DNA from: Candidatus Enterousia sp.
GTDB taxonomy: Bacteria > Pseudomonadota > Alphaproteobacteria > Rs-D84
DNA: 64,000 nucleotides
Assembly: GCA_045587125.1 (NCBI GenBank)
Contig: JAZNBN010000016.1
Coordinates: 32,728 to 96,727 of the forward strand
Reading direction: 5' to 3'
The position numbers and the translations under genes were made by a program. The notes under the pieces were generated by a model that worked only from the letters and a program-made list of their open reading frames with translations, was not told the origin of the DNA and searched no databases. Shown piece by piece: positions 1,926-55,373 of this stretch (within the stretch, counting starts at the first letter, position 1; each line of letters starts with the position of its first letter).

Positions 1926-1940
1926 ACACCATAAAACTTG

Positions 1941-1972: not shown

Positions 1973-1997
1973 ATTGGCAAAAAAGATAAATATTTTG

Positions 1998-2025
1998 TTG
2001 ACAAATTGTGTATTTAGTATATACT
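1998..2025 (+). promoter_or_regulatory. Candidate sigma70 promoter
   Basis: TTGACA (1998-2003), 16-nt spacer, TATACT (2020-2025), about 35 nt upstream of the 2059 start. Confidence 0.5.
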
Positions 2026-2058
2026 ATATGTAGTATAACAGATAAAAAAGGAATTAAT

Positions 2059-2346
2059 ATGAAAAAAGATTTAAAGCATAGAATGGTAAATATGGCGCCA
2101 AAGGCATTGTTTGGTCTTGCTGTTGCATTGACGTTGATTAGTTGTGATGCAGAACCAAGCCCAAGTGATTTAGCGTATATGTCGCCAAGTGAACGATATG
2201 GATATGAAAATTACGGTTCTGTTCCTGATGATATTACAGAAAAAGCACAAGCAAAGCAAAGGGCAACTGCATTATTTATTTTGGGTCTTGGAAGTGCGGT
2301 TGGTGCAGGTTGGGTTATTGGCAGCAAGAATAAAAAATCACGCTAA
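2059..2346 (+). CDS. Small putative lipoprotein with C-terminal TM helix (hypothetical)
   Basis: ATG at 2059 preceded by AAAAAGGAA. Signal peptide ends in the lipobox-like LTLISC. C-terminal hydrophobic stretch plus KNKKSR. No family recognised. Confidence 0.5.
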   Translation: MKKDLKHRMVNMAPKALFGLAVALTLISCDAEPSPSDLAYMSPSERYGYENYGSVPDDITEKAQAKQRATALFILGLGSAVGAGWVIGSKNKKSR

Positions 2347-2366
2347 ATTTAATTTGTACTAAATGA

Positions 2367-2391
2367 AAATCCCCCGTGTGGGGGATTTTTT
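2367..2391. terminator. Bidirectional rho-independent terminator
   Basis: AAAATCCCCC-GTGT-GGGGGATTTTTT sits between convergent genes. The same core recurs at 4246-4275. Confidence 0.75.
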
Positions 2392-3181
2392 ATTCAACCA
2401 ATTTCCAACCAGTGAATGTATAACCAGGTCTAACAGGGTCTTCTGGCATTGTGATTTCTTGGTTATAATCACATACACTTTGAAAAGTGTCATATCCGTT
2501 ATCTGGATTCCAATTAATATTGATTGTGTTTTCCACACATATTCCATTATCAACACGATATCCAGACGCGCACTTGGTCGCAACACATGTGTCAATTCCT
2601 GTGCCGTAATAATCTTTGCCCGCAAATTCAATCGCATTATCAATATTTAAATTTGCGGGGATACAGGACATATAACATTGTGAATCAGATGATGCAGCCG
2701 TTTCAGAACCGATATAACCATCTGGGCATGGATTTAAACCTTGGTCATTATATTCATTAAATGTGTACGTACCCCCAGGACAATAATAACCAGCCAAACA
2801 TTGGGTGCAAGAATCAACATTAGCCGGCAAATAATATCCCGGTTCACAATCATGAATATTTGGTGTGTAAATTGCGTGTATTTCAGGCAGAAAATTCACT
2901 GCACAAACATTATTCATTGTTGTTGCGGTATTGTCTATCATATATAGTCCCTGGTATTCGTCTGGATTAAATTCAAAGGTTCCACCAGGGCAATTAAAAC
3001 CAGACGGACAGGCGACACACCCCAATGTATTTGCCGGTAAAAAGTATCCAGCCGCACAATCATATTTGTTTATTTGATACAATGCAATATACTCATTATA
3101 ATTTATATCGCATATACTAATATCAGCCAACGCAAACTGCGTAATAAAAATAAATAATAAAGATGCGAATAATTTATTCAT
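2390..3181 (-). CDS. Secreted Cys-rich repeat protein with C-terminal GYTFTGW (Listeria-Bacteroides/Flg_new-like) module
   Basis: Signal peptide MNKLFASLLFIFITQFALA. Two CxxGYxLPANxxxCxxCxxGxxCPGGT repeats. C-terminal NTININWNPDNGYDTFQSVCDYNQEITMPEDPVRPGYTFTGWKLVE is shared with 24417-25559 and 53942-55321. Confidence 0.75.
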   Translation of the reverse strand: MNKLFASLLFIFITQFALADISICDINYNEYIALYQINKYDCAAGYFLPANTLGCVACPSGFNCPGGTFEFNPDEYQGLYMIDNTATTMNNVCAVNFLPEIHAIYTPNIHDCEPGYYLPANVDSCTQCLAGYYCPGGTYTFNEYNDQGLNPCPDGYIGSETAASSDSQCYMSCIPANLNIDNAIEFAGKDYYGTGIDTCVATKCASGYRVDNGICVENTININWNPDNGYDTFQSVCDYNQEITMPEDPVRPGYTFTGWKLVE

Positions 3182-3184
3182 AAA

Positions 3185-3931
3185 TTATTCACCAATTATC
3201 GGTCCAGCAATAAAATCACCGGTGCCCGCATTATAATAGTACTTATTTTCCACCAAATCATACATACATGGCACACCATTTTTATCCAGCACAGGTATAA
3301 AGTTACGGACCAATGTGCCATTATCATAAATTTTAAAATAATATATCTTAACTTTACCCGCTTCTATACCTGTTGGTCTTTGGTCTGCGAACATTAGCAT
3401 ATTATACGGCGACACAAAATTACCATATTGATGAGCAATTTGAACATACGGGCCATCATTTTTTGAATAATTTATAATGTTTTTATTCCAATCAATAACA
3501 ATCGTATCACCAACCGCAATTGAACCTGTCATATAATTGTTATTAAAATAATTAAAACTCAACTTTTGGTCCCAAGTATAAAGTTCAAATACACGACTAT
3601 TAAAACTTTGACCACTACCAAACATCATTGTTTCATAATTTGTCACGGAATTAAACATCCCCTTGGTTTTTACACCGGTATCTTGATTTGGAATATACCC
3701 CGTATCAATGTATTGTGTGCCAGTACTTTCCAGATATTCTATCTGTATATTGGTTCTCCACCCCTTGAACGTATACCCATATTTTTCTGGGGCGGTGGGT
3801 GGTGTAATATCGTCACCACTTTCACATATGGTTGTATGATATATTGAACCATCAACATACCAATTTATCGTGTGTGCAATTGCAGCGCTACAAACAAAGC
3901 ATAACGATAAAAATAACAATAAACGTTTCAT
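3185..3931 (-). CDS. Secreted protein: N-terminal GYTFKGW module plus beta-rich domain (YLESTGTQYIDTG motif), hypothetical
   Basis: Signal peptide MKRLLLFLSLCFVCSAAIA, then HTINWYVDGS...EKYGYTFKGWRT. GGGGGG Shine-Dalgarno 3 nt before the ATG. The stop lies 3 nt before the start of 2390-3181, so the two genes probably form an operon. Confidence 0.7.
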   Translation of the reverse strand: MKRLLLFLSLCFVCSAAIAHTINWYVDGSIYHTTICESGDDITPPTAPEKYGYTFKGWRTNIQIEYLESTGTQYIDTGYIPNQDTGVKTKGMFNSVTNYETMMFGSGQSFNSRVFELYTWDQKLSFNYFNNNYMTGSIAVGDTIVIDWNKNIINYSKNDGPYVQIAHQYGNFVSPYNMLMFADQRPTGIEAGKVKIYYFKIYDNGTLVRNFIPVLDKNGVPCMYDLVENKYYYNAGTGDFIAGPIIGE

Positions 3932-4168
3932 ATTCCCCCCATAAAGTTTTAAAAACCGTCAAGATTGTGACGGTCGGGGAGTTAGAAAATCATATAAGTT
4001 AAATGACTCTGTGGTTTTTCGGTTGCCCGTATTTTATAACCATCAGCCCCCCGACACAGCGTCAGGGTATGATAACGGCGCAAAAAACACCGAAACATCT
4101 ATTTAACGATGCTTTCGCACCGAACTTATATGGGCTTTCTACAACCCCGAACCCAATCTTGTGGATTC
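3932..4168 (-). promoter_or_regulatory. Long structured 5' leader with terminator-like hairpin just upstream of the RBS
   Basis: About 240 nt lie between the predicted promoter and the 3931 start. On the minus strand there are GC-rich hairpins: CGGTGC-GAAA-GCATCG and CCCTGAC-GCTGT-GTCGGGG. A CCGTCA-CAATCT-TGACGG hairpin followed by TTTTT (plus 3951-3973) sits directly before the GGGGGG SD. Confidence 0.45.
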
Positions 4169-4175
4169 AACGTAT

Positions 4176-4204
4176 ATTATATATGAAAAAAGACATATTT
4201 GCAA
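4176..4204 (-). promoter_or_regulatory. Candidate sigma70 promoter for the 3931-2390 operon
   Basis: Minus strand reads TTGCAA (4199-4204), 17-nt spacer, TATAAT (4176-4181). Confidence 0.55.
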
Positions 4205-4245
4205 ACTTATGAAAAAAAAATTACATGAAAAAACATAGTGCACAT

Positions 4246-4275
4246 AAAAATAATCCCCCGTGTGGGGGATTTTTA
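4246..4275. terminator. Rho-independent terminator
   Basis: AATCCCCC-GTGT-GGGGGATT flanked by A and T runs. It overlaps the stop of 4273-4608. Confidence 0.75.
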
Positions 4276-4608
4276 TTTTATCTCGTTAAACAATGCGTTT
4301 GGGGTTTGAATAAATATGTTACGCATACCAATTGCATGTTTGCAAAATTGTACGCACGTCCATGCACGGCACATATCTAAATCGCGGGGCGTATCGCATG
4401 GCAAATACACAAACCTCCAACCATGTGCCATCAATATTTTTATATCACGCATATTTATTTTGATTTTTGATATATTGTTATGTGACATAAATTGATGTAA
4501 AACCATACCATTCTGATTAACTTCGATTGGTGCACAGTGTTTTAAATTACCACAGAATATCCGTGGCAATATTTTTGATGTTTTGTCTGAAAAAGCAATA
4601 ATAATCAT
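4273..4608 (-). CDS. Hypothetical protein (111 aa)
   Basis: Start moved to the ATG at 4608, which is preceded by AAGGAA. Conserved-looking His (KHCAPIE) and Cys (WTCVQFCKHAIG) positions are faintly reminiscent of permuted papain/NlpC-like folds. Not verifiable here. Confidence 0.5.
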   Translation of the reverse strand: MIIIAFSDKTSKILPRIFCGNLKHCAPIEVNQNGMVLHQFMSHNNISKIKINMRDIKILMAHGWRFVYLPCDTPRDLDMCRAWTCVQFCKHAIGMRNIFIQTPNALFNEIK

Positions 4609-4662
4609 TTTTATTCCTTGGTGTATTTTTTTTGCCACCGGCATGACCGGTGGCACATTTTT

Positions 4663-5004
4663 TTAATCAATCCAACCGCGTTTTTGTGCCGCATCATGCA
4701 GAACATTCATTGCACGATTCCATTGGTCTGCGGCGCGATTTTCATTCCAAATATGTTGATGTGGTGCACGTCTTTTATCGCCAAATTTTTTCATGACCAT
4801 CAATTGTTCGTCGGTCAATTTTCCACACAGATACAGTTTTGTAATCATTGTTTCCACGTCCAGAATTTCGCATGGTCTGCGTGTCTGCATACTGTGCATA
4901 CGTGAAAAATTATTACGCACAGATTTTGAATACAGAAACCAAAACCACATTTGTTCGGCTGATTGAAATTTTTCGACAGATACCATTGTCATAACAGAGT
5001 TCAT
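4663..5004 (-). CDS. Hypothetical protein (113 aa)
   Basis: ATG at 5004 preceded by AAGGAGA. No recognisable motif. Lies just downstream of the virB10 terminators on the same strand. Confidence 0.55.
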   Translation of the reverse strand: MNSVMTMVSVEKFQSAEQMWFWFLYSKSVRNNFSRMHSMQTRRPCEILDVETMITKLYLCGKLTDEQLMVMKKFGDKRRAPHQHIWNENRAADQWNRAMNVLHDAAQKRGWID

Positions 5005-5180
5005 TTTTCTTTCTCCTTTGGTTGTGTTTATTGTTATTGATATATATAGCCTAAGAAAAGATTCCTGTGAAATACTACAACCAATGGTTGAAGTGTGAAT
5101 CGGAAAACAGATTCGGTTTTGTGTTTTGTGTTTTTGATTACGAATCGTTTAATCTTGTCGGTTATATACATAAATGTGAT

Positions 5181-5212
5181 AAAAAAAAGTGCGTAAAATT
5201 ACGCACTAAAAA
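5181..5212 (-). terminator. Rho-independent terminator (second after virB10)
   Basis: Minus strand reads AGTGCGTAA..TTACGCACT hairpin followed by T8. Confidence 0.65.
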
Positions 5213-5256
5213 GTCATGTTTTGTATATGTTTTTTACTTGTGTTTAATCCTTTTGG

Positions 5257-5281
5257 TTATTATATTAAAAAAACCGCCTTG
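5257..5281 (-). terminator. Rho-independent terminator after virB10
   Basis: AAAAAAACCGCC-TTGT-GGCGGTTTT, 12 nt beyond the virB10 stop. Confidence 0.7.
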
Positions 5282-5292
5282 TGGCGGTTTTG

Positions 5293-7686
<2,394 letters not shown>

Positions 7687-9294: not shown

Positions 9295-9972
9295 TTAGTT
9301 TGCCATATATCCTGTATCCAACGGATCCCCGTTATCCGATATAATTTCGTATTCTGAAACACGTAACCCCAGTGGATTATCAATCTTACTTGCCCACTTT
9401 ACATAATTATTGTCTTGTGTTTCTATTTTTATTCTTATTGTATAATCTTTTTGTGCCACAGGTCCAGCAGAATCTTCACAAAAATATCTAAATTTTACCT
9501 GATATGTATCTTGGTTGTATACAGATGATATTAATAAAGGTTCTGTATCAAAAAATACACTACATTTTATATTGTAATTTGGTGTGTCTGTCATTATTTC
9601 GTTGAACGCAAAAGTGTTTGCAAAATCAGAATATACACCGTCAACAGACATTGTTTTTATAACGCCATCAACACTGTTCCACTTTTTATTCATAACCTTG
9701 GCATTGTTTAATATTTCATTTCTGTGTCTGATATATTCACGTACCCAAGATTTCTTGTATATGTCTAAATATTCGCTTTTTGGGGGCATTTGTTCCAGTT
9801 TTATGTTCTGGTCTGCACGCAGCGTTGTTGTTAAAAAGAATATTTGCGGACTGTTTAATGGGAACATTTTGTACAAAGTAAATGCCAACGCCCCCAGTAC
9901 AACAATAGATGTTGCAAGTACAAACGTCATCAGTCTGGATACTAAAACTGGCGGTTTTACGCGTTTTTGCAC
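9295..9972 (-). CDS. virB8: Type IV secretion system VirB8-family protein
   Basis: GTG start preceded by AGGGGAGA. Short cytoplasmic N-terminus, one TM (FVLATSIVVLGALAFTLY), then a ~170-aa periplasmic domain (SWVREYIRHRNEI...). Gene order is B8-B9-B10. Confidence 0.7.
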   Translation of the reverse strand: MQKRVKPPVLVSRLMTFVLATSIVVLGALAFTLYKMFPLNSPQIFFLTTTLRADQNIKLEQMPPKSEYLDIYKKSWVREYIRHRNEILNNAKVMNKKWNSVDGVIKTMSVDGVYSDFANTFAFNEIMTDTPNYNIKCSVFFDTEPLLISSVYNQDTYQVKFRYFCEDSAGPVAQKDYTIRIKIETQDNNYVKWASKIDNPLGLRVSEYEIISDNGDPLDTGYMAN

Positions 9973-13314: not shown

Positions 13315-13680
13315 ATGGCAGACATTCAAAAATTAGTTGAAGAATTGTCAAAATTGAGCGTTTTGGAAGCAGTTGAACTGTCCAAAGCATTAGAAGAAAC
13401 ATGGGGCGTTAGTGCTGCTGCTGCTGTTGCAGTTGCTGCTGGTCCTGTTGCTGCTGCTGCAGAAGAAAAAACAGAATTTGATGTTGTATTGGCAGAAGCT
13501 GGTGCAAACAAATTGGCTGTTATCAAAGCAGTTAAAGATATCACTGGTTTAGGTTTGGGCGAAGCAAAAGCTTTGGTTGAATCTGCACCAAAAGCAGTAA
13601 AAGAAGCTGTTGCAAAAGATGAAGCTGAAAAAATGAAAGCAACATTAGAAGCAGCAGGTGCTAAGGTTGAATTGAAATAA
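13315..13680 (+). CDS. rplL: 50S ribosomal protein L7/L12
   Basis: 121 aa. Ala-rich hinge and C-terminal [34 protein letters not shown]. Confidence 0.95.
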
Positions 13681-22981: not shown

Positions 22982-24040
22982 ATGTCAGAAGATAAGAAAG
23001 TCATAGCAATTGATACCATGGGTGGGGACAAAGGTCCAAACGCTGTATTGGGTGGTATGAATCAGTTTTTGTATCAACATGGCGAAGATGTATTTTTTCG
23101 CATCTTTGGTGATGAAAAGGTATTACGCAAATTATTGGCAAAATATCCACGTGTTGCCCGTAATTGCGAAGTAATCCATGCACCTGGGGTTATCAAGGGA
23201 ACTGATAAAGTAATGGACGTTCTGCGTCATGCCCAAGATACATCTATGTACATGGCAATCAAAGACGTTCGTGAAGGAAAATCTGCCGCGGTTATCAGTG
23301 CTGGTAACACAGGCATGTTGATGTCATTATCTAAATTGGCGTTGAAAACAATTGATGGTATTGCACGTCCTGCGATTACAACAATGTTACCATCTGGGGC
23401 GGGGGACAGCCGTGTTGTCGTTCTGGATTTGGGTGCAAACGTTCAATGTGATGAAAATGTATTGTTTGACTTTGCCGTATTGGGCAGTGTTTATGCCGAA
23501 GTTGTGGGCAAAATGCCAAAACCAAAATTGGGTGTATTAAACATTGGTTCCGAAGAAACCAAGGGCAATGAAACATTGGTCCATTTGAATAAAGTTCTGA
23601 CAGAAAATAAAGATGAATTGCCATACGAATACATCGGTTTTGTAGAGGCAAATGATATCAGTGCGGGTAAGGTTCAGGTTGTTGTGACCGACGGCTTTAC
23701 TGGCAATATCGTATTGAAAACGGTTGAAGGTACCGCAAAATTAATTAAACGTGTTATCGTTGAAAATTTCAAGAAATCTGTTTTGGCGATAATGGGTGCT
23801 TTTTTCTTGGTACACGTATTTAAACGTTTAAAGAATAAAATTGACCCACGTTCTTATGCCGGTGCGACATTTTTGGGATTGCGTGGTTTTGCGTTTAAAA
23901 CACATGGGAACAGTGATGCATTGGCATTTGCAAATGCGATAAAATATGCATTTGATTTGACCAAGGCAAACCTTAATGGATTAATAGAAGAACGTGCACG
24001 TGCACTGGCCACGGTCCGTGCAAAATTACAAGAAGAATAA
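22982..24040 (+). CDS. plsX: Phosphate acyltransferase PlsX
   Basis: 352 aa. IAIDTMGGDKGPN, SAGNTGMLM and VTDGFTGNIVLKTVEG. Confidence 0.93.
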   Translation: MSEDKKVIAIDTMGGDKGPNAVLGGMNQFLYQHGEDVFFRIFGDEKVLRKLLAKYPRVARNCEVIHAPGVIKGTDKVMDVLRHAQDTSMYMAIKDVREGKSAAVISAGNTGMLMSLSKLALKTIDGIARPAITTMLPSGAGDSRVVVLDLGANVQCDENVLFDFAVLGSVYAEVVGKMPKPKLGVLNIGSEETKGNETLVHLNKVLTENKDELPYEYIGFVEANDISAGKVQVVVTDGFTGNIVLKTVEGTAKLIKRVIVENFKKSVLAIMGAFFLVHVFKRLKNKIDPRSYAGATFLGLRGFAFKTHGNSDALAFANAIKYAFDLTKANLNGLIEERARALATVRAKLQEE

Positions 24041-24064
24041 AAATCCCCTTGTGGGATTTTTTTA
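24039..24064 (+). terminator. Rho-independent terminator after plsX (also the 5' edge of the duplicated cassette)
   Basis: AAATCCC-CTTGT-GGGATTT plus T-run. Homologous to 53727-53752. Confidence 0.7.
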
Positions 24065-24129
24065 TTTATGATAAAATTCACGTAACAGGGAAAAACGAAG
24101 GAAAAAATGATAGAATTTCGCAGAAATCT

Positions 24130-24153
24130 AGAGAGAGAGAGAGAGAGAGAGAG
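24130..24153 (+). repeat. (AG)12 dinucleotide tract
   Basis: Counted directly: AGAGAG... for 24 nt. The paralogous position 53820-53833 has (AG)7. Confidence 0.95.
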
Positions 24154-24193
24154 TTAAAAACATTTAACGCAAACCGTGTTTGCGTGTATGAAT

Positions 24194-24234
24194 AAACACC
24201 CAATGGTGCGTTGCGCCATTGGGTGTTTGTTTTG
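24194..24234 (+). terminator. Leader terminator-like hairpin, copy 1
   Basis: Perfect 13-bp stem AAACACCCAATGG / CCATTGGGTGTTT, 9-nt loop, then GTTTTG. Confidence 0.5.
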
Positions 24235-24273
24235 AAACGAAAGGAACAGATATAGAACAAAGCACTTAATAAA

Positions 24274-24381
24274 CCTTGTCATTGCGAGGGGTGTTAACCC
24301 CGTGGCAATCCAGTGAATCGTGCTTTGTTATACTAAGGCCAAATTAACTGGATTGCCGCGCTATCGCTCGCAATGACAAGG
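24274..24381. mobile_element. MITE-like palindromic element inserted in the leader
   Basis: Perfect 15-bp terminal inverted repeats CCTTGTCATTGCGAG / CTCGCAATGACAAGG. Inner 11-bp IR GGCAATCCAGT / ACTGGATTGCC. Small GGGGT-GTTA-ACCCC hairpin. Absent from the paralogous leader at 53753-53941. Confidence 0.5.
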
Positions 24382-24416
24382 AAGCAAACAAAAAAACAAA
24401 AGAAAGGACGGGAGAT

Positions 24417-25559
24417 ATGAAAAAATATTTTTTAACCACCGCATTAATGGGAACGTTTATTGCACCTGCATTCGGTGCCGATAAAATAATAACCAGTGCG
24501 AATACATGTACATTTGACGTATTGGGTGTGCATGAAAATGATTCAACTGCAAACACAATAGCGACATGGGATTTGATAGATTATACATTGAATCCAGGGC
24601 AATACTTAAACGTAACAGAAACATCTGTGGACAAAACAACATGTCCCGCGGGTTCATATTGCGTTGGTGGTGGTTATACAGTTGAAACGGCGGACAACAG
24701 TATCGCCCAATGTCCGGCGGAATACCCGAACAGTGCCGAAGGTGCGGGTGCGGATACACAATGTTACACGGCATGTACGCTTAATATGGTTCCAAAGGCA
24801 AAGGCAGTTACCGGTAATGATTATTATGGCAATGGCACAGATACATGCGAACCAACGGCATGCGTTGCCGGTTGGCATGTAAAACCTGGATTAACCCTGA
24901 CAGAAATAATAGGTGAAGAAGCAGGTACTAACAGGGCACATATAAGAAACGATGGTTCATTTGACGAGGTTGATTTTGGTGGAGGTATCAAAGGCCAAGA
25001 ATATTATGGTATCAGTGGCAAAAATAGTTTTGCAGTAGATTATGCAGGTAAAGGTATGTTGACCGGCCATGGCCGTTGCAGCACGCAACCAGGGGTAAGA
25101 GAATTTGACTGGCCAACAGAGACTGGTGGAGAAATAACCGTTGTAAACAACCTGACCGATGAAACGGGTCAGGAAGGTGCGAAGTATTGTTATTGTCAGG
25201 TTGATGGTTTTACGCCAACGGGTGGCGACAAAGTAATAGTTACATCGGCCCCTTGGGTGTACTCAGACAACTCCAACGGCTCGGCAGATTATTGTGTTGA
25301 CAATTGTGCAGGATCCTGTGGTATCGCATTGGTTAATGACGTTGTAATCAATCTTCATTTACGTGCAGTGATGTTTGAAGCGATCGGATCAATAACACCT
25401 GCAACATGCGCCGCCAACACAATAAATATCGACTGGAATCCGGATAATGGTGGTGAACATACAGTTAATCAGTGTACATACGAAGGTAGTATTGAATTGC
25501 CAACCCCAGACCCAGTTAAACCTGGATATACATTTACGGGTTGGAAGTTGGTGGATTAA
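24417..25559 (+). CDS. Secreted Cys-rich modular protein with C-terminal GYTFTGW module (family member)
   Basis: Signal peptide MKKYFLTTALMGTFIAPAFG. The N-terminal ~120 aa are colinear with 53942-55321. The ~170-aa centre is unique. C-terminal NTINIDWNPDNGGEHTVNQCTYEGSIELPTPDPVKPGYTFTGWKLVD. Confidence 0.8.
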   Translation: MKKYFLTTALMGTFIAPAFGADKIITSANTCTFDVLGVHENDSTANTIATWDLIDYTLNPGQYLNVTETSVDKTTCPAGSYCVGGGYTVETADNSIAQCPAEYPNSAEGAGADTQCYTACTLNMVPKAKAVTGNDYYGNGTDTCEPTACVAGWHVKPGLTLTEIIGEEAGTNRAHIRNDGSFDEVDFGGGIKGQEYYGISGKNSFAVDYAGKGMLTGHGRCSTQPGVREFDWPTETGGEITVVNNLTDETGQEGAKYCYCQVDGFTPTGGDKVIVTSAPWVYSDNSNGSADYCVDNCAGSCGIALVNDVVINLHLRAVMFEAIGSITPATCAANTINIDWNPDNGGEHTVNQCTYEGSIELPTPDPVKPGYTFTGWKLVD

Positions 25560-25694
25560 AATAAATTATAATAATTCATCTGCCCGCGGTACCGGCAACT
25601 CATGTAACATTTGTACACTACGTTGCCGGCACCACGTGCATCTAAATCATTCTAATTCATTTTGTGGATATGATATATTCAGTTTCCCGTCCCT

Positions 25695-25721
25695 AAAATC
25701 CTCCAAGTGGGGGATTTTTTT
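25695..25721 (+). terminator. Rho-independent terminator (3' edge of cassette 1)
   Basis: AAAATCCTCC-AAGT-GGGGGATTTTTTT. Homologous to 55347-55373. Confidence 0.7.
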
Positions 25722-38121: not shown

Positions 38122-38254
38122 GTTTTTTTTCTTGTTATCTTTGTTTTTTTGCACGGTTTTACCCCTGGTTATATTAGGTATTTTATCATAAAAATCTTGC
38201 AAAGTATTGTTTTTTATAGGTATAATCCTATCACAGAAAGAAAGGAAAATACAT

Positions 38255-38854
38255 ATGAAAAAAATTGTTTTTATATTATGTGGTGTATTAAGTCTGCCTG
38301 CATTTGCGTCTGAATATGATACGTATGCCGGATTTCGCATTCATAAAAATGAAAACTTGGCATTTAATTATGACATTTATGGTGGTGATGATATTAATAT
38401 TCGCAAAGATAATTTTGGCATTGGTGCGGTTGTCGGTAATAGATTAAGTGACAATGTAAAAATAGAATTTGAAACATCTTATACAGGTGCCCAGCAAAAC
38501 AGACATAACACAGACTTTGATTTTGATATATGGTCAAATATGTTCAATATGTATTTGTTCCAAGAATTTTCTGGTGCAATTGCCCCATATGCGGGTTTGG
38601 GTGTTGGTTTTGCGACCATTTGGTCTGATATAGATGCACCAAATTATCATATTTCAGACAGTTGTTTTGATTTATCGTATCAAATTATGTTTGGTGTAAA
38701 TTTTGCATTAAATGACCGTATTGATTTTAATCTGGGGTGTAAATATCAGTATTATGGTGATATAGAACATGAATCATATGGAAATGAAATTGCAACAACA
38801 AATGCATCTGGGACCGAGGTGTACTTTGGTGCCGTATATAAATTCGGAATGTAA
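38255..38854 (+). CDS. Small outer-membrane beta-barrel protein (OmpA/OmpW-like fold)
   Basis: Start ATG 38255 (AAAGGAAAA). Signal peptide MKKIVFILCGVLSLPAFA. Alternating beta-strand pattern. Ends ...EVYFGAVYKFGM. Confidence 0.65.
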   Translation: MKKIVFILCGVLSLPAFASEYDTYAGFRIHKNENLAFNYDIYGGDDINIRKDNFGIGAVVGNRLSDNVKIEFETSYTGAQQNRHNTDFDFDIWSNMFNMYLFQEFSGAIAPYAGLGVGFATIWSDIDAPNYHISDSCFDLSYQIMFGVNFALNDRIDFNLGCKYQYYGDIEHESYGNEIATTNASGTEVYFGAVYKFGM

Positions 38855-43159: not shown

Positions 43160-43489
43160 ATGAAGAATAAAGCAGTAAAATTGGGGCTGGTTGCGACTAT
43201 TGTTCCGCATATCTTTTGTTGTGGCATACCAATGTTGTTGGCGGTTGTTGGGTTGATTGCACCGGATATGGCGCACTTTCATTTATTGCCACATTGGCTG
43301 GAACCTTGGTTGTTTGTATTTTCTGGGGTTATGTTAGTTATATCTTGGTATTTAGTTTATCGTGAATGCAGATGTTCATGTTCGCATTGTGGTGGCCTGT
43401 CTTCGCATCGTGTACAAAAGATAGTCTTGGCGGTTATAACGATTGTTTTTATTATCAGTATATTTTTACATATTATTTCACATCATTAA
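43160..43489 (+). CDS. Small 3-TM membrane protein with MerT-like Cys arrangement
   Basis: TM1 carries a CC pair (PHIFCCGIPMLL). The loop between TM2 and TM3 has a Cys cluster (RECRCSCSHCGG). Topology mirrors MerT. No merP/merA/merR nearby. Confidence 0.35.
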   Translation: MKNKAVKLGLVATIVPHIFCCGIPMLLAVVGLIAPDMAHFHLLPHWLEPWLFVFSGVMLVISWYLVYRECRCSCSHCGGLSSHRVQKIVLAVITIVFIISIFLHIISHH

Positions 43490-43514
43490 AAAAATCCCAA
43501 AACGGGATTTTTTT
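43488..43514. terminator. Bidirectional terminator
   Basis: AAAAAATCCC-AAAAC-GGGATTTTTTT. Confidence 0.75.
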
Positions 43515-45257: not shown

Positions 45258-45284
45258 TAATCATAATTGAAAGGGAGATTTCTA

Positions 45285-47756
45285 ATGAAAAGATTTGTTG
45301 CGGTATTAAGTGGTTTATTGACTTTGCCTGCATTTGCGGAGGTTGTGCCGGTTTATTACGATGAAGTAATAGAGTATACAGAAGAAGAAATGCCAACCGA
45401 AGAAGTGGCAGAAACGCCGGCCAAGGTTGTACAACCGGTTTCTCAGCCGTCTAATGTTTCTTCTCGTTCTGGTGTAAACGGTCGTGCCGCATCACGTGTA
45501 TCTCCCAGTGTTCGTGGAACGACAAATACATCTGCACGTAGTGTAAATGCCCGTACGTCCAGTGTGTCTCGTAATGCAACTCAGGCTCGTACAGGGGTTC
45601 AGACACGTGCTGTAAATGCACGTACAACATCTTCACGTGCTGCGACTGTGAATAATTCACGTGTGGCACAACGTAATGCCCGTGCTGCTACAAATACGCC
45701 AACTGCGACTGCTACACGTCGTGGTGTTGCGACAGGTGGTGCAAATACTGCGCGTGCGGGGATTGTTCAAACAGATACTGTAAATGCACCATTGTACACA
45801 GGTCGTGTAAGCACACGTTCTTCTGCGGTTATGGCACGTGCGCCGGTTGTTTCTGCTATAAATAGTACAACCAGTACAACTGCAACAACAGATGCTGTAT
45901 CAACAATTAATCAAATTGATGAATTGGCACAGATGACTGATTACTGCAAAGCGCAATATACATCATGTATGGATAATTATTGTAATGTTCTGGATGATAA
46001 TCAGGGTCGTTGTACATGTTCCAAAAATATTAAAAATTATGAAAAAACAGAAAAAGCTTTAAAAGAAGCAACGGAATCATTGCAAGACGTTGCGCAACAG
46101 ATTCAATATATTGGTTTGACAGGTGACGATATTGAAACATTATTCACCCAGACCGAGGCCGAAATCCAAATGCAGGCGACAACTGATAATACCCAGTTAA
46201 AAAACAGTTTGGATTCAATCCGTGATTTAATAGTAGAGGTTAAAACAGGAACTGCGACATCCAGCGAAACAGGTTTGTCATTTGATTTGTCTGGATTGCT
46301 TGATTTTAATATCAGTGGCACTGGTTTTGATTTGGGTGCAATGTTTGGCACAAATACTGCAAACACTTCCAGTATCAGCAACCAACGTGGCGAACAATTG
46401 TACAAAACTGCATCTGCACGATGCAAGGCATCTGTATTAAACACATGTCAAAATCAAGGTGTTGATATATCTGTTATCACAAATGCGTATGATATGGAAA
46501 TTGATAAGCAGTGTATCGCATACGAACGCAGTTTGAACGAAGCCAACGACAACATGAATAATACAGTACGCAATGCAAAAACTGTATTGCAAAAAGCACG
46601 TTTGATGGTTTCGCAACAAAAGAATGCATATGACCTGCGTGGTTGTGTAAATGCATTGGATTCATGTATGCAAGATGAATTTGTGTGCGGCACAGATTAT
46701 GAAAACTGTCTGGATCCAACCGGTAAATATATTGTAAACGGTGAAATCGTAATGGGTTCTATGCCTGGATTGGCGGTGGACAGTACACCAATTGGTGCAC
46801 CATTATCAGATTTAACACAAAGTGGTCTTTATAAAACATGGAATTACGATGAAGGTAAAATCAACGCATGGTATGGTGATGGTTCTTTGGGTAATTACAT
46901 TAATGCGACTGTAAAGAATGCTCAGTCCGCATCTACATCGTCAACTATGTCTGAATATTTGTTGGCCAAGATTGGTTACATATCAGATGGGCGCAGTTAT
47001 GGTATGTGTTCATCCGTATTAAATAAATGTCAGATGTACACATTTGATAAAAATGGTAACTATCAACATGACAACATGGTTGTAAAAGAATATTTGGCAC
47101 GCACGATGACCCAGATTAAGGCGGCCCAAGATGAAATCTTGGCTGATTATGCGGGTGGTTGTATGATTGATGTTGAAACATGTTTGGGTAAAAACAATTA
47201 CGGCACAAACAATGGTTCTTATTCAAATGCTGCAATCAATGCATGTCGTTCCCAGATTGTAACATGTATGTCTGTAAATGGTGATGCAACCCAGGATCCA
47301 AATCCTGCCACTATCAAGGCTTGGATAGACAAGGCATACAATGAAACTGCACAAAATTGTGAAAGTACAGGCGGCGAATGGTCGAATGGCGCATGTAAAT
47401 GTGGCTCAGGTACGACATTGGGTACAGATGGTAAATGTACATCGGGCTCTGATACATCAGGTGAAACAGAAAATTGTAAGATGGTTGAATTGATCGGCCG
47501 AGATGGAAGTACGGTTGTCAAAACAATGTACAGAAGTGTTGATTCTGCTGCTTCGTTCTATTCAAATGATTCATGTGTTGGCACGACATCTTCGGTTCTG
47601 GTTGGAACAGAAGTTACTGGATTTGTGTTTGACGGATATTACACCACAAAAGATTTTGAAACACAATGTGTAGGAGGTACAGGTACATATAATGATAACG
47701 TTCAATGTGCCCCAACAACTGATACAAAATGGTATGGAAGATGGATTGTAGAATAA
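45285..47756 (+). CDS. Giant secreted protein, paralogue 2 (823 aa)
   Basis: Start ATG 45285 (AAGGGAGA SD; MKRFVAVLSGLLTLPAFA). Arg/Thr/Ser-rich region, the same conserved core as 30436-33957, and a single C-terminal GFVFDGYY...TKWYGRW module. Confidence 0.8.
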   Translation: MKRFVAVLSGLLTLPAFAEVVPVYYDEVIEYTEEEMPTEEVAETPAKVVQPVSQPSNVSSRSGVNGRAASRVSPSVRGTTNTSARSVNARTSSVSRNATQARTGVQTRAVNARTTSSRAATVNNSRVAQRNARAATNTPTATATRRGVATGGANTARAGIVQTDTVNAPLYTGRVSTRSSAVMARAPVVSAINSTTSTTATTDAVSTINQIDELAQMTDYCKAQYTSCMDNYCNVLDDNQGRCTCSKNIKNYEKTEKALKEATESLQDVAQQIQYIGLTGDDIETLFTQTEAEIQMQATTDNTQLKNSLDSIRDLIVEVKTGTATSSETGLSFDLSGLLDFNISGTGFDLGAMFGTNTANTSSISNQRGEQLYKTASARCKASVLNTCQNQGVDISVITNAYDMEIDKQCIAYERSLNEANDNMNNTVRNAKTVLQKARLMVSQQKNAYDLRGCVNALDSCMQDEFVCGTDYENCLDPTGKYIVNGEIVMGSMPGLAVDSTPIGAPLSDLTQSGLYKTWNYDEGKINAWYGDGSLGNYINATVKNAQSASTSSTMSEYLLAKIGYISDGRSYGMCSSVLNKCQMYTFDKNGNYQHDNMVVKEYLARTMTQIKAAQDEILADYAGGCMIDVETCLGKNNYGTNNGSYSNAAINACRSQIVTCMSVNGDATQDPNPATIKAWIDKAYNETAQNCESTGGEWSNGACKCGSGTTLGTDGKCTSGSDTSGETENCKMVELIGRDGSTVVKTMYRSVDSAASFYSNDSCVGTTSSVLVGTEVTGFVFDGYYTTKDFETQCVGGTGTYNDNVQCAPTTDTKWYGRWIVE
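45934..47384 (+). repeat. Inverted-repeat arm B (conserved core of the giant paralogues)
   Basis: See 31970-33417. Spurious mirror ORFs in the track (32906-33202 + and 46103-46444 -) translate almost identically, confirming high nucleotide identity. Confidence 0.8.
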
Positions 47757-51301: not shown

Positions 51302-51322
51302 TAAAACACAGGGGTGGCTTTT

Positions 51323-53728
51323 ATGGCAACATTGACACTTGGAAAATCTGTAACAACTGATGCAGTTCGCAGCAAAAAAGGCGACGCGGTCTTTGTAGAA
51401 CGTCGTCGTCGTGTTGTTGCCCCAGGCAGCAAAGAATTGCGTGATGAACCAACTGCGCCAAGCGCGCCAAAAAACGCAGCAGATGAAAAATTGCGTGCGG
51501 TTTTGGCGGCTGCCAAGGCACGTGAAGAAGAACGTAAAAAACGTGAAGCCGAAGAAGAGGCCGCACGTGCTGCACGTGCTGCGGAAATTGAACGCGAAAC
51601 ACGTGAATACGAACATGTCAAAGAACAATTGGCTGCACGTGAAAACGCACCTGTTGCGGATAATGCAGAAGAAAATGTTGCCACGCCACGTCCGCAAAAA
51701 CATGCATCACAACCAAAAGTTTTTACAAATAATGCCACGCCAAATACAGGGCGCAAAAATCGTGATAATGACGAAGATGACAATCGTTCTTCACGCTTTG
51801 GAAATTCCAAGAAAGATTTTAAAAAGACTGGAAAAATTCACCTGCGTGATATTGTTATGGGCGATGGCGAAGACGATGATGAAATCGGTATTCGTGGTGC
51901 AAACCGTCGCCGGTCCGAGGCTTCATTAAAACGTTTCCGTGAAAAGGCACGTGCGGTGTTTACAGTCCCACAAAAGGTTGAACATGTTGTGTCTTTGGGT
52001 GATACGATAACAGTAAAAGATTTGGCGGCTGCAATGGCTGAAAAGGTCGGCAATGTTATCAAAAAACTGATGGAAATGGGAATGATGGTTTCTGTGAATC
52101 AGTCTATTGATGCGGACACTGCGGAATTGATTGCAGGTGAATTTGGTGCGACTGTTAAACGCGTTGATGTTAAACCTTATGCAGATATTTTGGAACGCGA
52201 ACCCAACCCAGAATTGATGACACCACGTGCACCGGTTGTAACGGTTGTAGGTCACGTTGATCATGGTAAAACATCTTTGTTGGACGCATTCCGTAATGCA
52301 AATGTAGCCGCGGGCGAAGCAGGTGGTATTACCCAGCATGTATCTTCGTACGAAGTTAAAACAAAATCTGGTGCGATGATAACATTTTTGGATACGCCGG
52401 GGCATGAAACATTTACAGCAATGCGTGCACGTGGTGCGCAAATGGCAGACATTGTTGTATTGGTTGTTGCGGCAAATGATTCAATCATGCCACAAACGAT
52501 AGAGGCGATTAATCACATTCGTGCGGCCAACGTTCCATTTATTGTTGCGATAAATAAAATTGACTTGCCCGAAGCAAATGCTATGCGTGTAAAAACAGAC
52601 CTGTTGCAACAAGAGGTCCAGGTTGAAGAAATGGGCGGTGATGTTCAATGTGTTGAAATTTCTGCAACCAAGAAAATCGGTCTGGATAAACTGGAAGAAG
52701 CAATTTTATTACAGGCCGAAATGATGGAATTAAAAGCCGACGCAGAAATGCCGGCGGTCGCATACGTGGTAGAGGCGAAACAAGAAAAAGGTCTTGGGGC
52801 GGTTGCAACTGTATTGATGCGTCAAGGTACATTGAAAATTGGTGATGTATTTGTTGTTGGTGAAACATTTGGTCGTGTACGCGGTCTGATAAATTCTGCG
52901 GGTGAACGTGTAAAATCTGTCCGTCCGGGTCAACCTGCGGTTGTTTTGGGATTAAATTCTGTCCCAGGTGCAGGTGATGAATTGCGTGTTATGGAGTCTG
53001 AGGCCCAAACACGCGAAGTTGCGGCATATCGTGCACAAAAAACCAAGGACAAAGCAAATGCAGTTAAACGTTCTTCTTTGGAAGAATTGTTTGCAAAACG
53101 TGATGATAATAAAAAGTTAATTTTGCCAATCATTTTACGTGCAGACGTTCAAGGTTCTGTTGAGGCGATTACAGACATGGTCAAAGACATTGCCACAGAC
53201 AAAGTTGGTGTTGAAATATTGTCTTCTGGGGTTGGTCAAATTACCGAAGGTGATATACGTTTGGCAACGGCATCTGGTGCGGTGATAATTGCATTTAACG
53301 TTCGTGCAGATTCTGTTGTTCGTGATATGGCACGCAGCAATGGTGTTGATATCAGATATCACAGTGTTGTATATCGCATCACAGATGAAATCAAAGAAAT
53401 ACTGTCTGGTAAATTGGCACCTGAAAAGCGTGAAACATTTATCGGATACGCAGACGTTATTGCATTGTTCACAGTGGGCAAAGGCGTACGTGTTGCCGGT
53501 TGTCGCATGACCGAAGGCACGGTTAAAAAAGATGCGTTTGTACGTCTGTTGCGTAACAACGTTGTAATATATGACGGAAAAATCGGACAATTACGTCGTG
53601 AAAAGAACGAAGTAAAAGAAGTATCTGGTGGCGTTGAATTTGGTATGTCTTTTGATAAGTATAATGACTTAAAAGAAGGCGACCGTGTTGAATGTTACGA
53701 GGTTGAAGAAATCCGTGCACAAATATAA
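51323..53728 (+). CDS. infB: Translation initiation factor IF-2
   Basis: Start probably ATG 51323 (the ORF opens with GTG at 51314). G-domain [25 protein letters not shown] and NKIDL. Confidence 0.95.
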
Positions 53729-53752
53729 AAAATCCCCCTTGTGGGGATTTTT
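53727..53752 (+). terminator. Rho-independent terminator after infB (5' edge of cassette 2)
   Basis: AAAAATCCCC-CTTGT-GGGGATTTTT. Confidence 0.7.
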
Positions 53753-53819
53753 AATTTATGATATAATTCACGTAACAGGGAAAAACGAAGGAAAAAATGA
53801 TAAAATTCCGCAGAAATCT

Positions 53820-53833
53820 AGAGAGAGAGAGAG
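53820..53833 (+). repeat. (AG)7 dinucleotide tract
   Basis: Counted directly. Paralogous to the (AG)12 tract at 24130-24153. Confidence 0.95.
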
Positions 53834-53876
53834 TTAAAAACAAATTTTAACGCAAACTACGTTTGCGGTAATGAAT

Positions 53877-53922
53877 AATCACCTTAATGGCATGTCGTGC
53901 CATTAAGGTGATTATTTTTTTA
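53877..53922 (+). terminator. Leader terminator hairpin, copy 2
   Basis: Perfect 16-bp stem AATCACCTTAATGGCA / TGCCATTAAGGTGATT, 5-nt loop, then ATTTTTTT. Ends 20 nt before the start codon. Confidence 0.6.
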
Positions 53923-53941
53923 TAACGAAAAGGAAAGGGAA

Positions 53942-55321
53942 ATGAAAAAATATTTTTTTACAACAGCAATTATTATGGCGACATTCGGCGCATTTGGTGC
54001 GAACGGCACAATTACGGGCGGTGCGGGAACATGTACTTTTGACGTATTGGGTGTATCGGACAATAACGCAACCGCAAATACAATCGCAACATGGACATTG
54101 AACGAATATGAATGCGGTGCTGGTCAATATTTATTAAATTCAGATGGAACATTGAAATGCACAGAATGTCCGGTTGGTTCATATTGCCCGGGTGGTAAAT
54201 TCACGGTTGAATCTGAAAACAATGGTACAAACGCATGTCCAACAGATTATACATCGGACGCGGGTGCAGTGGGTGAAAACGAATGTTATATAGGTTGCGA
54301 ATTGTCTTGCAGTACGAACGTAGAATGTCCACCGCATTCCAATAATTGTACACACAGTGAATTTAAAACCACCGGCAAACAATTTGCGGGCGGCACCTGT
54401 AATGCATACCCCAGTGTGTGCCCAATCAATGATTTTCAGTGCGACACGGGGTATAGTAAAACGGAAATGACATTGGATGAGTTTGAAGAGCTGGCGAAGG
54501 CAGATAATGGTTCAGGTCTAATACTTGAGTGTCCCTTGTCTGGAAACGGTTTGTCAGAGAATGATAATATAGACGATTGTAAATTTTTACGTCCCGGTGA
54601 AATTATGATACTTTCCGGCAAATTTTATGCTATTTTTATTGAGGTGGCTTTGAATGATTATTCGATTGATACACCAGGTATTGTGACAAAAAAAATACAA
54701 CAAGTTTCACCGTACGATGATGAGTATGTTACGTTCGCATATTTACCAAATGCGAATTTTAATCTTGGGGGTAATGGACAACAAATGTGGGCAAGGTATT
54801 CAAAAGTCGCTATTCCGGGGCCCGACACAATGGTTTATTTAGGAATGGCGGAACAAGGGTTTGAAACAGAAGACGAAATGATGGTTTATCTGCAACAAAA
54901 TTTATCCCCAGCCGCATGGGAAAGTTTTAATTCTTTAATGACTCGGGGAGATCAAGAATCTATGTTTGAATGGATGTTATCTACAATGAATATTATTTCA
55001 GTAGACATGCCTTGGGTGACTTCGGATAAACAAGAGTATTTGCAATCTCTTGAAACCAAGTTGTATTCTGTGGTGATACTTGATGCGTTCGGAGATGAAC
55101 ACGTAAGCGAAGACTTTATGAAAGATTTAGAAGAATCAAGAAATTCAGTATCGTACTGTGCAGCCAACACAATCAATATTGATTGGAACCCAGATAATAA
55201 TGGCGAACATATCAAAAATATGTGTACGTATGATGGCAGTATTACTGTTCCATCCGATCCAGTTAAACCAGGGTATACATTTACCGGTTGGAAGTTACTG
55301 GAAGAAACCACAACCGAATAA
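53942..55321 (+). CDS. Secreted Cys-rich modular protein with C-terminal GYTFTGW module (family member)
   Basis: Signal peptide MKKYFFTTAIIMATFGAFG. N-terminal module GAGTCTFDVLGVSDNNATANTIATW...CPVGSYCPGGKFTVE. Unique ~260-aa centre. C-terminal NTINIDWNPDNNGEHIKNMCTYDGSITVPSDPVKPGYTFTGWKLLE. Confidence 0.8.
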   Translation: MKKYFFTTAIIMATFGAFGANGTITGGAGTCTFDVLGVSDNNATANTIATWTLNEYECGAGQYLLNSDGTLKCTECPVGSYCPGGKFTVESENNGTNACPTDYTSDAGAVGENECYIGCELSCSTNVECPPHSNNCTHSEFKTTGKQFAGGTCNAYPSVCPINDFQCDTGYSKTEMTLDEFEELAKADNGSGLILECPLSGNGLSENDNIDDCKFLRPGEIMILSGKFYAIFIEVALNDYSIDTPGIVTKKIQQVSPYDDEYVTFAYLPNANFNLGGNGQQMWARYSKVAIPGPDTMVYLGMAEQGFETEDEMMVYLQQNLSPAAWESFNSLMTRGDQESMFEWMLSTMNIISVDMPWVTSDKQEYLQSLETKLYSVVILDAFGDEHVSEDFMKDLEESRNSVSYCAANTINIDWNPDNNGEHIKNMCTYDGSITVPSDPVKPGYTFTGWKLLEETTTE

Positions 55322-55346
55322 TATTCAGTTTCATCTTCCTGAACCT

Positions 55347-55373
55347 GAAATCCCCCAAGTGGGGGATTTTTTT
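55347..55373 (+). terminator. Rho-independent terminator (3' edge of cassette 2)
   Basis: GAAATCCCCC-AAGT-GGGGGATTTTTTT. Confidence 0.7.

Follow-up and report, generated by a model that had tools for sequence, protein, structure and literature searches.

We analyzed a stretch of 64,000 nucleotides (nt) from the genome of a Candidatus Enterousia species (contig JAZNBN010000016.1; this whole stretch is called the window below) in which two paralogous surface-protein genes are each preceded by a leader with a long hairpin between promoter and ribosome-binding site (RBS). That this hairpin is a real, structurally conserved terminator-like element in both leaders is strongly supported by our analyses of the sequence. 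We further propose, with a probability of about 0.65 and based on the sequence as well as on analogy to a known system, that it serves as the attenuator of a phase-variable leader-peptide switch.

In this proposal, the transcript would start at a promoter ca. 25 nt 5′ of a short leader open reading frame (ORF), and slipped-strand gain or loss of one AG unit in an (AG)n tract within this ORF would shift its reading frame. Two frames out of three are short, and in these the ribosome would stop at or just after the tract and at least 25 nt before the hairpin; the hairpin of 19–21 base pairs (bp) with its U-tract would then form behind RNA polymerase, and transcription would end before the gene (OFF). 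In the third (long) frame, the ribosome would instead cross a small hairpin and stop either at the base of the terminator's 5′ arm or within this arm, where its footprint would hold the arm single-stranded while the polymerase crosses the U-tract, resulting in read-through (ON). Each paralogue would switch stochastically and independently. The parts of this model that we infer are the transcription start site (TSS), that the leader ORF is translated, that transcription terminates at the hairpin and is read through by means of the ribosome, the coupling of transcription and translation, and a pausing role of the small hairpin. The elements on which the model is built are listed here for both copies of the leader, with window coordinates, strand, and the kind of analysis by which each was recognized.

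Copy 2
53788..53850, + strand: Shine-Dalgarno (SD) sequence AAGGA (53788-53792) and leader ORF with ATG at 53797, MIKFRRNLERERVKNKF, and stop codon TAA at 53848-53850 (frame reading)
53820..53833, + strand: (AG)7 simple-sequence repeat (SSR) in the leader ORF (repeat scan)
53851..53867, + strand: small conserved hairpin CGCAAAC-UAC-GUUUGCG, within the long frame (folding, covariation)
53873..53921, + strand: putative attenuator, 21-bp hairpin and T7 (folding, terminator scan, covariation)
53876-53878, + strand: stop codon TAA of the long frame, in the base of the 5′ arm of the hairpin

Copy 1
24098..24157, + strand: SD (24098-24102) and leader ORF with ATG at 24107, MIEFRRNLERERERES, and stop codon TAA at 24155-24157 (frame reading)
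24130-24153, + strand: (AG)12 in the leader ORF (repeat scan)
24167..24185, + strand: small conserved hairpin ACGCAAAC-CGU-GUUUGCGU (folding, covariation)
24191..24233, + strand: putative attenuator, 19-bp hairpin (24191-24231) with U-rich 3′ side UUUGUUUU (folding, covariation)
24193-24195, + strand: stop codon TAA of the long frame, within the putative attenuator

The hairpin is a stable, terminator-like structure in both copies

In copy 2, the stem (53873-53917) comprises 21 pairs, 19 of which are consecutive Watson-Crick pairs (53874-53916), around a GUC loop; it is followed by a T7 run at 53915-53921 and by the start codon of the gene at 53942. Its folding energy (ΔG) of -29.3 kcal/mol corresponds to z = -8.7 relative to dinucleotide shuffles, none of which folded equally well (0/200). 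The stem is also the longest perfect short-loop inverted repeat of the 64-kb window, and block shuffles of the window yielded zero short-loop perfect repeats with arms of at least 12 nt. The copy 1 stem (24191-24231) has 19 pairs including 2 G-U pairs, with ΔG of -30.9 kcal/mol and z = -7.1, and its tail, UUUGUUUUG, is weaker than the one of copy 2. Both copies thus resemble intrinsic terminators in having a stable stem-loop with a U-rich tract behind it on the strand that is transcribed, and the U-tract after the stem is kept in 7/7 lineage representatives. A terminator scan called the copy 2 hairpin with 20 pairs and a T-run, and in copy 1 only an apical sub-stem of 5 pairs with the tail UUUGUUUU. 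Folding and shuffle controls therefore bear out the initial annotation of this DNA, which had placed a hairpin between promoter and RBS in both copies. The perfect cores of 16 bp (copy 2) and 13 bp (copy 1) given there are correct, but they understate the full stems of 21 and 19 pairs, and the hairpin adjoins the RBS as described for copy 2 but not for copy 1, where a palindromic insertion of ca. 108 nt (24274-24381) intervenes.

The stem is maintained by compensatory changes

All differences between the stems of copy 1 and copy 2 preserve pairing: besides changes from A-U to U-A, from C-G to U-A, and from G-C to A-U, they consist of one inserted U:A pair and two one-sided changes that result in G-U pairs. 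We combined the two window copies with five homologous hairpins on other contigs into an alignment of 7 leaders from 4 lineages, in which 130/130 cells of the 19 stem pairs are paired and 12 of the 19 pairs have double-sided changes. None of 500 column shuffles attained the observed values, and only 37–52% of cells were paired when the partner was slid by 1–3 columns as a control. These pair counts come from a hairpin-only alignment, since the arms of the hairpin were shifted relative to each other when whole leaders were aligned with MAFFT. Among the 130 stem cells, 5 are G-U and zero are A-C. Selection on the stem as an RNA structure, which had been suggested from the two copies by themselves, is thus supported by the sequence comparison, and it extends to additional homologues: a lack of compensation in further leaders had been named as a possible sign of error, and the five extra ones do compensate.

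These data also bear on the idea that the hairpin is nothing but a spare terminator of plsX or infB, the genes upstream of copy 1 and copy 2, or else a palindrome at the level of DNA such as the remnant of a repeat element or a protein-binding site. It does lie on the same strand downstream of both genes, and palindromic elements resembling miniature inverted-repeat transposable elements (MITEs) are found nearby. We nevertheless regard this explanation as hardly credible. Both plsX and infB already have a terminator of their own, the cassette promoter precedes the hairpin, which travels together with the gene that follows it, and homologous leaders are linked to downstream surface-protein genes on several unrelated contigs. 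Furthermore, a protein-binding site would conserve sequence and not pairing, and the presence of G-U pairs together with the absence of A-C pairs indicates that it is RNA of the + strand, and not DNA, that pairs.

The (AG)n tract lies in a leader ORF with a conserved frame layout

The block GAAGGAAAAA-ATG 5′ of the (AG)n tract reads as an SD sequence with a start codon, and 10/10 leaders have SD-like purines and then an ATG whose frame relative to the tract is fixed. The distance from ATG to tract is 23 nt in nine of them and 32 nt, in frame, in the tenth (contig L023). In all 10 leaders, exactly one of the post-tract frames is long (39–61 nt) and has its stop codon at -1 to +15 nt relative to the first base of the hairpin, while the other two frames end 25–47 nt 5′ of the hairpin. 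The two window copies differ by a 3-nt indel between tract and hairpin that preserves all three frames. The leader ORF of copy 1 (24107-24157) reads MIEFRRNL(ER)n..ES before its stop codon. Since all three post-tract frames of the window copies stop before the RBS and ATG of the gene itself, control would be exerted via the terminator in the leader and not via truncation of the protein.

Both window copies are presently in a short frame and hence predicted from their repeat numbers to be in the OFF state. The long frame requires n = 2 modulo 3 in these copies, and each is one unit away from it (12 to 11; 7 to 8): (AG)8 or (AG)5 would bring copy 2 into the long frame, and (AG)11 or (AG)14 would do so for copy 1. 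As judged from contigs assembled from different samples, the tract is unstable. Contigs L046 and L047 have (AG)16 and (AG)13, respectively, with identical protein and flanks, while the near-identical leaders of L022 and of L026/L043 have 14 versus 13 units; contig L044 breaks inside its (AG)n tract. Apart from the leader tracts of copies 1 and 2, the window has no dinucleotide repeat of 5 units or more. It does have an imperfect hexanucleotide repeat (TGGTTC x 11.8) at 7102-7172 and a TGC/GCA trinucleotide-rich stretch at 13413-13460, but these are probably coding low-complexity regions that would not shift the frame, with units of 3 nt or a multiple thereof.

Contig L020 (- strand; tract at 1297-1318) shows such a tract being read as codons, because the GCAGAAATCT(AG)n module has the arrangement of classical translational phase variation there: GCAGAAATCT(AG)11 is fused directly to the signal-peptide ORF of a Cys-rich protein with C.PGYY motifs. 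As assembled, this gene is out of frame, and n = 10 or 13 would restore the frame. The initial annotation had considered the (AG)n tract as part of a possible small RNA (sRNA); it had been overlooked that the tract sits in a leader ORF with conserved SD and ATG and is not just a piece of an sRNA or of an untranslated leader.

Simple-sequence repeats may also act from within a 5′ untranslated region (UTR), for which uspA2 of Moraxella is a comparator. Applied to the window, this would mean that an untranslated repeat tunes the level, folding, or processing of the transcript and that the 20-bp duplex is an RNase III or stability element instead of a terminator, which we consider quite unlikely. 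A perfect duplex of ca. 20 bp is plausible as a substrate of RNase III, and 5′ UTR repeats are known to modulate expression, with Haemophilus influenzae hmw as a comparator (PMC12721329). However, the (AG)n tract has no pyrimidine-rich partner and lies outside the hairpin, a U-tract follows the stem in all lineages, both the frame layout and the start codon are conserved, and the tract of L020 is clearly coding.

The module precedes surface-protein genes of different families

The proteins encoded downstream of the two window copies share a nearly identical InlB B-repeat (Flg_new, PF09479) at the C-terminus; behind a signal peptide, their N-terminal part is Cys-rich and conserved. They are 40% identical overall, with conservation of the N-terminal ca. 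120 amino acids (aa) and the C-terminal ca. 50 aa around a divergent middle. We found 253 homologues in metagenomes (E ≤ 1e-5); the closest matches in genomes are Candidatus Enterousia metagenome-assembled genomes (MAGs), with paralogues at 18 loci in one of them and at a single locus in a second one. The order Rs-D84, to which Enterousia belongs, consists of uncultured Alphaproteobacteria of animal guts with genomes under 1 Mb (PMC12306168). The targets of the putative switch are thus multi-copy, variable surface proteins, which we count as the usual substrate of phase variation. Two further genes of the window (38241-38308 and 45271-45338) share an RBS and signal-peptide start (MKK...LPAFA) with 75% identity and form another paralogous family of secreted proteins without an (AG)n leader.

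Homologous leaders were collected in several ways. The leader of the same protein family in the second Enterousia MAG (L016) was found through its protein, independently of any leader pattern, and is composed of GTGCAGAAATCT(AG)10, a small hairpin, and a long hairpin with U8 ca. 25 nt before the start codon. A scan of metagenomes with GCAGAAATCT(AG)5 resulted in L021, L022, L023, and L026, and protein look-ups added L043, L044, L046, and L047. All of these latter leaders precede a different family of surface proteins of ca. 204 aa. Conservation up- and downstream of the search pattern is not given by construction. The (AG)n module is always located directly 5′ of, and co-oriented with, a surface-protein gene, while the upstream neighbors differ. 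Most contigs looked up for both protein families have other leaders, i.e., a long attenuator without repeat (L029-L031), a plain short leader (L032-L041), or a differently structured one (L045). The leader pattern had 0 matches in viral contigs.

The hairpin separates the only conserved promoter from the gene

Each copy is part of a duplicated cassette. Starting at the terminator of plsX (22982-24040) or infB (51314-53728), the cassette comprises a leader of ca. 200 nt and one of the paralogous genes (24417-25559 and 53942-55321), and its end is marked by similar terminators downstream. Between the copies, the leader is 92% identical in its 5′ part, which includes a fully identical block of 34 nt, while the hairpin region and the coding regions are only ca. 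70% identical. The remaining features of the two cassettes are the following.

Copy 2
53728..53752, + strand: terminator hairpin directly after the stop codon of infB; left edge of the duplicated cassette, where the alignment of the copies begins
53739..53767, + strand: predicted sigma-70 promoter with -35 TTGTGG (53739-53744), a 17-nt spacer, and TG-extended -10 TATAAT (53762-53767) (direct sequence reading)
53927..55321, + strand: RBS (AAAAGGAAAGGG) and gene for a secreted Cys-rich protein of 459 aa with C-terminal InlB B-repeat (Flg_new) (protein analysis)

Copy 1
24039..24077, + strand: terminator hairpin after plsX (24039-24061) overlapping the predicted promoter with -35 TTGTGG (24049-24054) and TG-extended -10 TAAAAT (24072-24077) (sequence reading)
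24274..24381, no strand assigned: palindromic MITE-like insertion of ca. 108 nt between putative attenuator and RBS, in copy 1 only (copy alignment)
24403..25559, + strand: RBS and gene for a paralogue of 380 aa (protein comparison)

The -35 element predicted for copy 2 is carried by the loop and 3′ arm of the infB terminator hairpin, and we infer a TSS at about 53772-53775 for this copy. The promoter layout TTGnnn-N17/18-TGnTAnAAT recurs in L022/L026, L023, L016, and the leaders of the Enterousia paralogues. Because the terminator-like hairpin is located 3′ of the only conserved promoter and 5′ of the RBS, expression of the gene would need conditional read-through. The small hairpin in the long frame covaries as well (8 pairs, 98% paired, 3 pairs with double changes in 7 leaders) and is possibly an element that makes RNA polymerase pause or that serves as a spacer.

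The combination of a promoter and a strong terminator delimits a short transcription unit. The main product could hence be a trans-acting sRNA of ca. 130–150 nt that contains (AG)n and has its 3′ end at the hairpin, with a separate promoter for the downstream gene; in the state predicted to be OFF, this RNA would build up. We consider this very improbable. In copy 2, L016, and L022/L026, the start codon follows the U-tract after only ca. 20–25 nt, in which no conserved promoter fits; the module is always directly 5′ of and co-oriented with a surface-protein gene with which it travels, and a conserved SD and ATG would be unexpected in an sRNA. An sRNA of ca. 100 nt containing the (AG)n tract had been one of two possibilities suggested at the outset; we found nothing specific in its support, and at most it would be a by-product of the OFF state.

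The insertion of copy 1, which does not belong to the switch, has the terminal inverted repeats TTGTCATTGCGAGG / GCTCGCAATGACAA. An unrelated contig (L030, about 9460-9600) has a MITE-like element of ca. 85% identity to it 5′ of a paralogue. The sequence GAAAGGAACAGATATAG (24237-24253), just 5′ of the insertion in copy 1, looks like a degenerate version of the RBS and start of the gene. The terminators 3′ of both paralogues (25678-25721 and 55330-55373) are 84% identical, with others of this kind at 2349-2392 and 43471-43514; because of this identity, the duplicated unit spans from the upstream terminator and promoter to the downstream terminator. Many terminators of the window use a common AAAATCCCC-loop-GGGGATTTTT design.

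No conserved antiterminator or known riboswitch is found in the leaders

Conditional read-through could be achieved in different ways, and the initial annotation had named attenuation, a riboswitch, and protein-mediated antitermination. The position of the hairpin between the only conserved promoter and the RBS agrees with attenuation, while a riboswitch or RNA antiterminator finds neither an Rfam match nor a conserved pairing. Folding of the leaders for an alternative antiterminator, as had been recommended, revealed no conserved pairing: when the leaders were folded only as far as the loop, without the 3′ arm, the 5′ arm formed at most 0–9 non-conserved pairs. At the gathering score, Rfam 15 detected only 2 tRNAs in the whole window, and its matches to the two leaders at E ≤ 10 were only unrelated hairpin families far below gathering score. 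We therefore rejected a riboswitch-type reading, for which there were only weak, non-conserved pairings of the 5′ arm and no Rfam family. Since there is no conserved antiterminator and no Rfam family, the ribosome would be the remaining agent to hold a hairpin of -30 kcal/mol open.

A terminator that is conditional on a factor or ligand acting in trans, such as a NusG paralogue, an antiterminator that is an RNA-binding protein, or a riboswitch-like sensor, would make the (AG)n tract and the leader ORF incidental. A terminator between promoter and RBS does demand some control of read-through, and the sister leaders in the Enterousia MAG, which lack an AG tract, have clear mutually exclusive pairings (see below), which shows that this family uses RNA-structure switches. 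We still find this explanation unlikely: the leaders of the (AG)n type have no conserved alternative pairing of the 5′ arm and no Rfam match, the leader from TSS to hairpin is short, purine-rich, and poorly structured, and the conserved SD and ATG together with the layout of one long and two short frames would be left unexplained.

Related leaders without the repeat suggest an older attenuator

Most paralogues in the Enterousia MAG with 18 loci, as well as L029-L031, have a longer leader of ca. 260 nt without (AG)n (L002-L019 except L016, and L029-L031; about 210–270 nt 5′ of the start of the paralogue). Besides the shared promoter, it has a hairpin at its 5′ end, a second one of GGGU/ACCC, and an internal one that is terminator-like and comes with a T-run. 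Its segment 2 (GGTCAGGAG) can pair with either segment 1 (CTCCTGACC) or segment 3 (CCTCCTGACC); the latter has an overlap with the 5′ arm of a final terminator (ACCACTG...CAGTGGTTTTGTTTTT), behind which ACAAAACC follows. Two other subgroups change the three segments together (CTCCAACC/GGTTGGAG/CTCCAACC and CCCTGACTG/CAGTCGGGG/CTCCCCGAC), a covariation of the 1:2 and 2:3 pairings as judged by direct reading of the sequences. The upstream ORFs of the long leaders mostly terminate at a TGA within or beside segment 1, or else at a conserved GAATAA/GAATAG, and segment 1 is preceded by short A5-A7 runs. These long leaders are probably a family of translation-dependent attenuators that is not described in Rfam. 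A search for their motifs in the window found none.

The leader of L016 links both types, with GGGGCTGnCACAA...GTGCAGAAAT in common between it and the long leaders. The (AG)n cassette therefore looks derived from an older attenuator, and this in turn supports the view that the hairpin of the window is a regulated terminator. A tentative extension, to which we give somewhat less than even odds, is that the unit of promoter, leader ORF with (AG)n, small hairpin, and terminator is a portable phase-variation cassette that originated in reduced-genome gut Alphaproteobacteria (Enterousia / Rs-D84) when an older, longer translation-dependent attenuator was turned into a stochastic switch. This older attenuator would be the leader of ca. 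260 nt with its 1:2, 2:3, and 3:4 pairings, which precedes nearly every paralogue that we read. The cassette would then have spread to unrelated families of surface proteins, forming an opa-like combinatorial repertoire with control exerted through transcription termination.

Several other elements were seen around the paralogues on these contigs. Matches to the Rfam family sRNA-Xcc1 (RF02221) of 35–39 bits, below the gathering threshold of 53, occur consistently in one subgroup of the long leaders (L003 2370-2460, L006 2371-2461, L015 2373-2462, and L018 2160-2250) and at one further place (L031 15698-15789 on the - strand). Long palindromic repeats directly 3′ of paralogues (L003 3940-4137, L006 3891-4083, and L011 4022-4199) match Rfam WsnRNA46 (Wolbachia sRNA 46) with 42–58 bits versus a gathering threshold of 65 and are likely a second MITE family common to other Alphaproteobacteria. 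Furthermore, a conserved element of ca. 170 nt that ends in a terminator is located just 5′ of two paralogue promoters (L004 about 2110-2260 and L031 about 9530-9690). It has the CU-rich stretches CUCCCUCC, UUCUCUCUCCUCU, and UUUCUCCUUUCCUUCCUUUC and is absent from the window; it is possibly an sRNA that pairs with purine-rich RBS or leader sequences. On the 198-kb Enterousia-like contig L031, phage-like genes (terminase, capsid, nozzle, and hydrolase) at 737-7672, a few kb upstream of the paralogue, are a possible prophage.

Points that weigh against the proposed switch

Several observations speak against a phase-variable leader-peptide switch or weaken the support for it. The first group concerns copy 1, where the U-tract is interrupted and the MITE-like insertion separates the putative attenuator from the RBS, so that this copy may behave differently. 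Another group concerns the leader ORF. The spacing of its SD is short (AAGGA-N4-ATG), and L016 has merely a G-rich stretch at this position. The leader ATG of both window copies lies within a second TG-extended -10-like motif (TGATAGAAT / TGATAAAAT; 24107-24115 and 53797-53805), which, if active, could give transcripts without the leader start codon; this motif is not conserved in L016, L021-L023, L026, or L046.

The comparative evidence has limits of its own. The layout of one long and two short frames arises in 5–12% of shuffles of the intervening sequence, per lineage, but the four lineages are related by descent and these probabilities cannot simply be multiplied. The GCAGAAATCT(AG)5 block is conserved by construction in the leaders that were retrieved with it, and only L016 is independent of the pattern. 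The long frame is present in only one of 8 independent contigs (L022, n = 14), which is compatible with an expectation of 1/3 (P about 0.2) and gives no positive support. Finally, tight coupling of transcription and translation is an assumption of the model for this uncultured organism.

Comparison with known regulatory systems

The proposed switch joins features of several well-studied kinds of regulation. In the trp and his attenuators of E. coli, the position of a ribosome on a short leader ORF decides about termination, and at pyrBI the ribosome physically prevents formation of the terminator hairpin. The block of the window terminator by a ribosome that we propose is like pyrBI. Unlike trp and his, the window leaders have no 2:3 antiterminator hairpin and no runs of regulatory amino-acid codons, and the sole codon run in their ORFs is (Glu-Arg)n, which stems from the repeat itself. 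The input would also differ, being a heritable frameshift in the DNA for the window and a metabolic signal for classical attenuators.

Phase variation by repeats inside genes is known from the CTCTT repeats of Neisseria opa and from CT/AG tracts in the signal-peptide regions of Helicobacter pylori outer-membrane proteins. As in these systems, repeat slippage would change a reading frame and the targets are multi-copy surface proteins; L020 has exactly this arrangement. In contrast to them, the tract of the window copies is located in a separate upstream ORF outside the frame of the structural gene. For Clostridioides difficile cwpV, recombinase-mediated DNA inversion decides whether a leader terminator forms. 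It resembles the window in setting a surface protein ON or OFF via an intrinsic terminator in the leader, but it involves neither an SSR in a leader ORF nor a ribosome. At H. influenzae hmw1A, a hairpin with the 5′ UTR SSR is processed by RNase III, and the effect is graded by repeat length (PMC12721329). Both hmw1A and the window have a transcribed SSR in the 5′ leader beside a long hairpin upstream of a surface gene (an adhesin for hmw1A). However, the repeats of hmw1A form one arm of the hairpin, whereas the window repeat lies outside of it and comes with a U-tract and a modulo-3 frame logic.

The closest parallel is found in the pil1 and pil3 loci of Streptococcus gallolyticus, for which phase-variable leader-peptide attenuation has been shown genetically (Danne et al. 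2014, PMC3894217). Short leader peptides that stop 39 nt upstream of the stem-loop (at least 28 nt in isolates) result in low expression, while stops adjoining or inside the stem-loop result in high expression because the ribosome prevents termination, and the repeat number differs among isolates (PMC3894217). In the literature that we searched, phase variation by a repeat-containing leader peptide and a terminator is documented only for these two loci. If our proposal is true, a non-homologous version in an uncultured, genome-reduced gut alphaproteobacterium would mean that this logic arose at least twice and is not confined to Gram-positive pili. The n modulo 3 rule would then predict the ON or OFF state of each paralogue from metagenomic reads, and the expression states of surface antigens of an uncultivable symbiont would be readable from sequence data. 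For annotators, it would be a warning that dinucleotide repeats in “intergenic” leaders can be coding. With 18 paralogue loci in one MAG, each with an attenuator of its own wherever the upstream DNA was read, in genomes under 1 Mb (PMC12306168), these bacteria would invest heavily in surface variation, which would be relevant to their persistence in animal guts.

The pil loci and the window have in common a promoter, a leader ORF with RBS and ATG that contains a non-triplet SSR, a premature terminator, and a downstream gene for a surface structure. Also the variable repeat number and a stop position set by the reading frame can be recognized in the window-type leaders, and terminator energies are comparable (ΔG of -18.7 and -28.2 kcal/mol for pil versus -29 and -31 kcal/mol for the window; PMC3894217). 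Compared with the published description, the window leaders have no sequence homology to those of pil1 and pil3, from which they differ in repeat, hairpin sequence, and phylum. The repeat is AG with 5–16 units instead of a GCAGA pentanucleotide with 13–22 units, the host is a reduced-genome Gram-negative alphaproteobacterium instead of a Firmicute, and single genes, whose products are secreted Cys-rich proteins or other surface proteins, take the place of sortase-pilus operons as targets. Unlike in pil, only one of the three frames reaches the terminator in the window, and the long frame includes an additional conserved small hairpin. The window-type cassette is furthermore multi-copy, found 5′ of at least two unrelated protein families, and apparently derived from a longer attenuator without SSR. 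Judged by this comparison, the putative switch of the window is an analogue of pil1 and pil3 in its logic and not a homologue.

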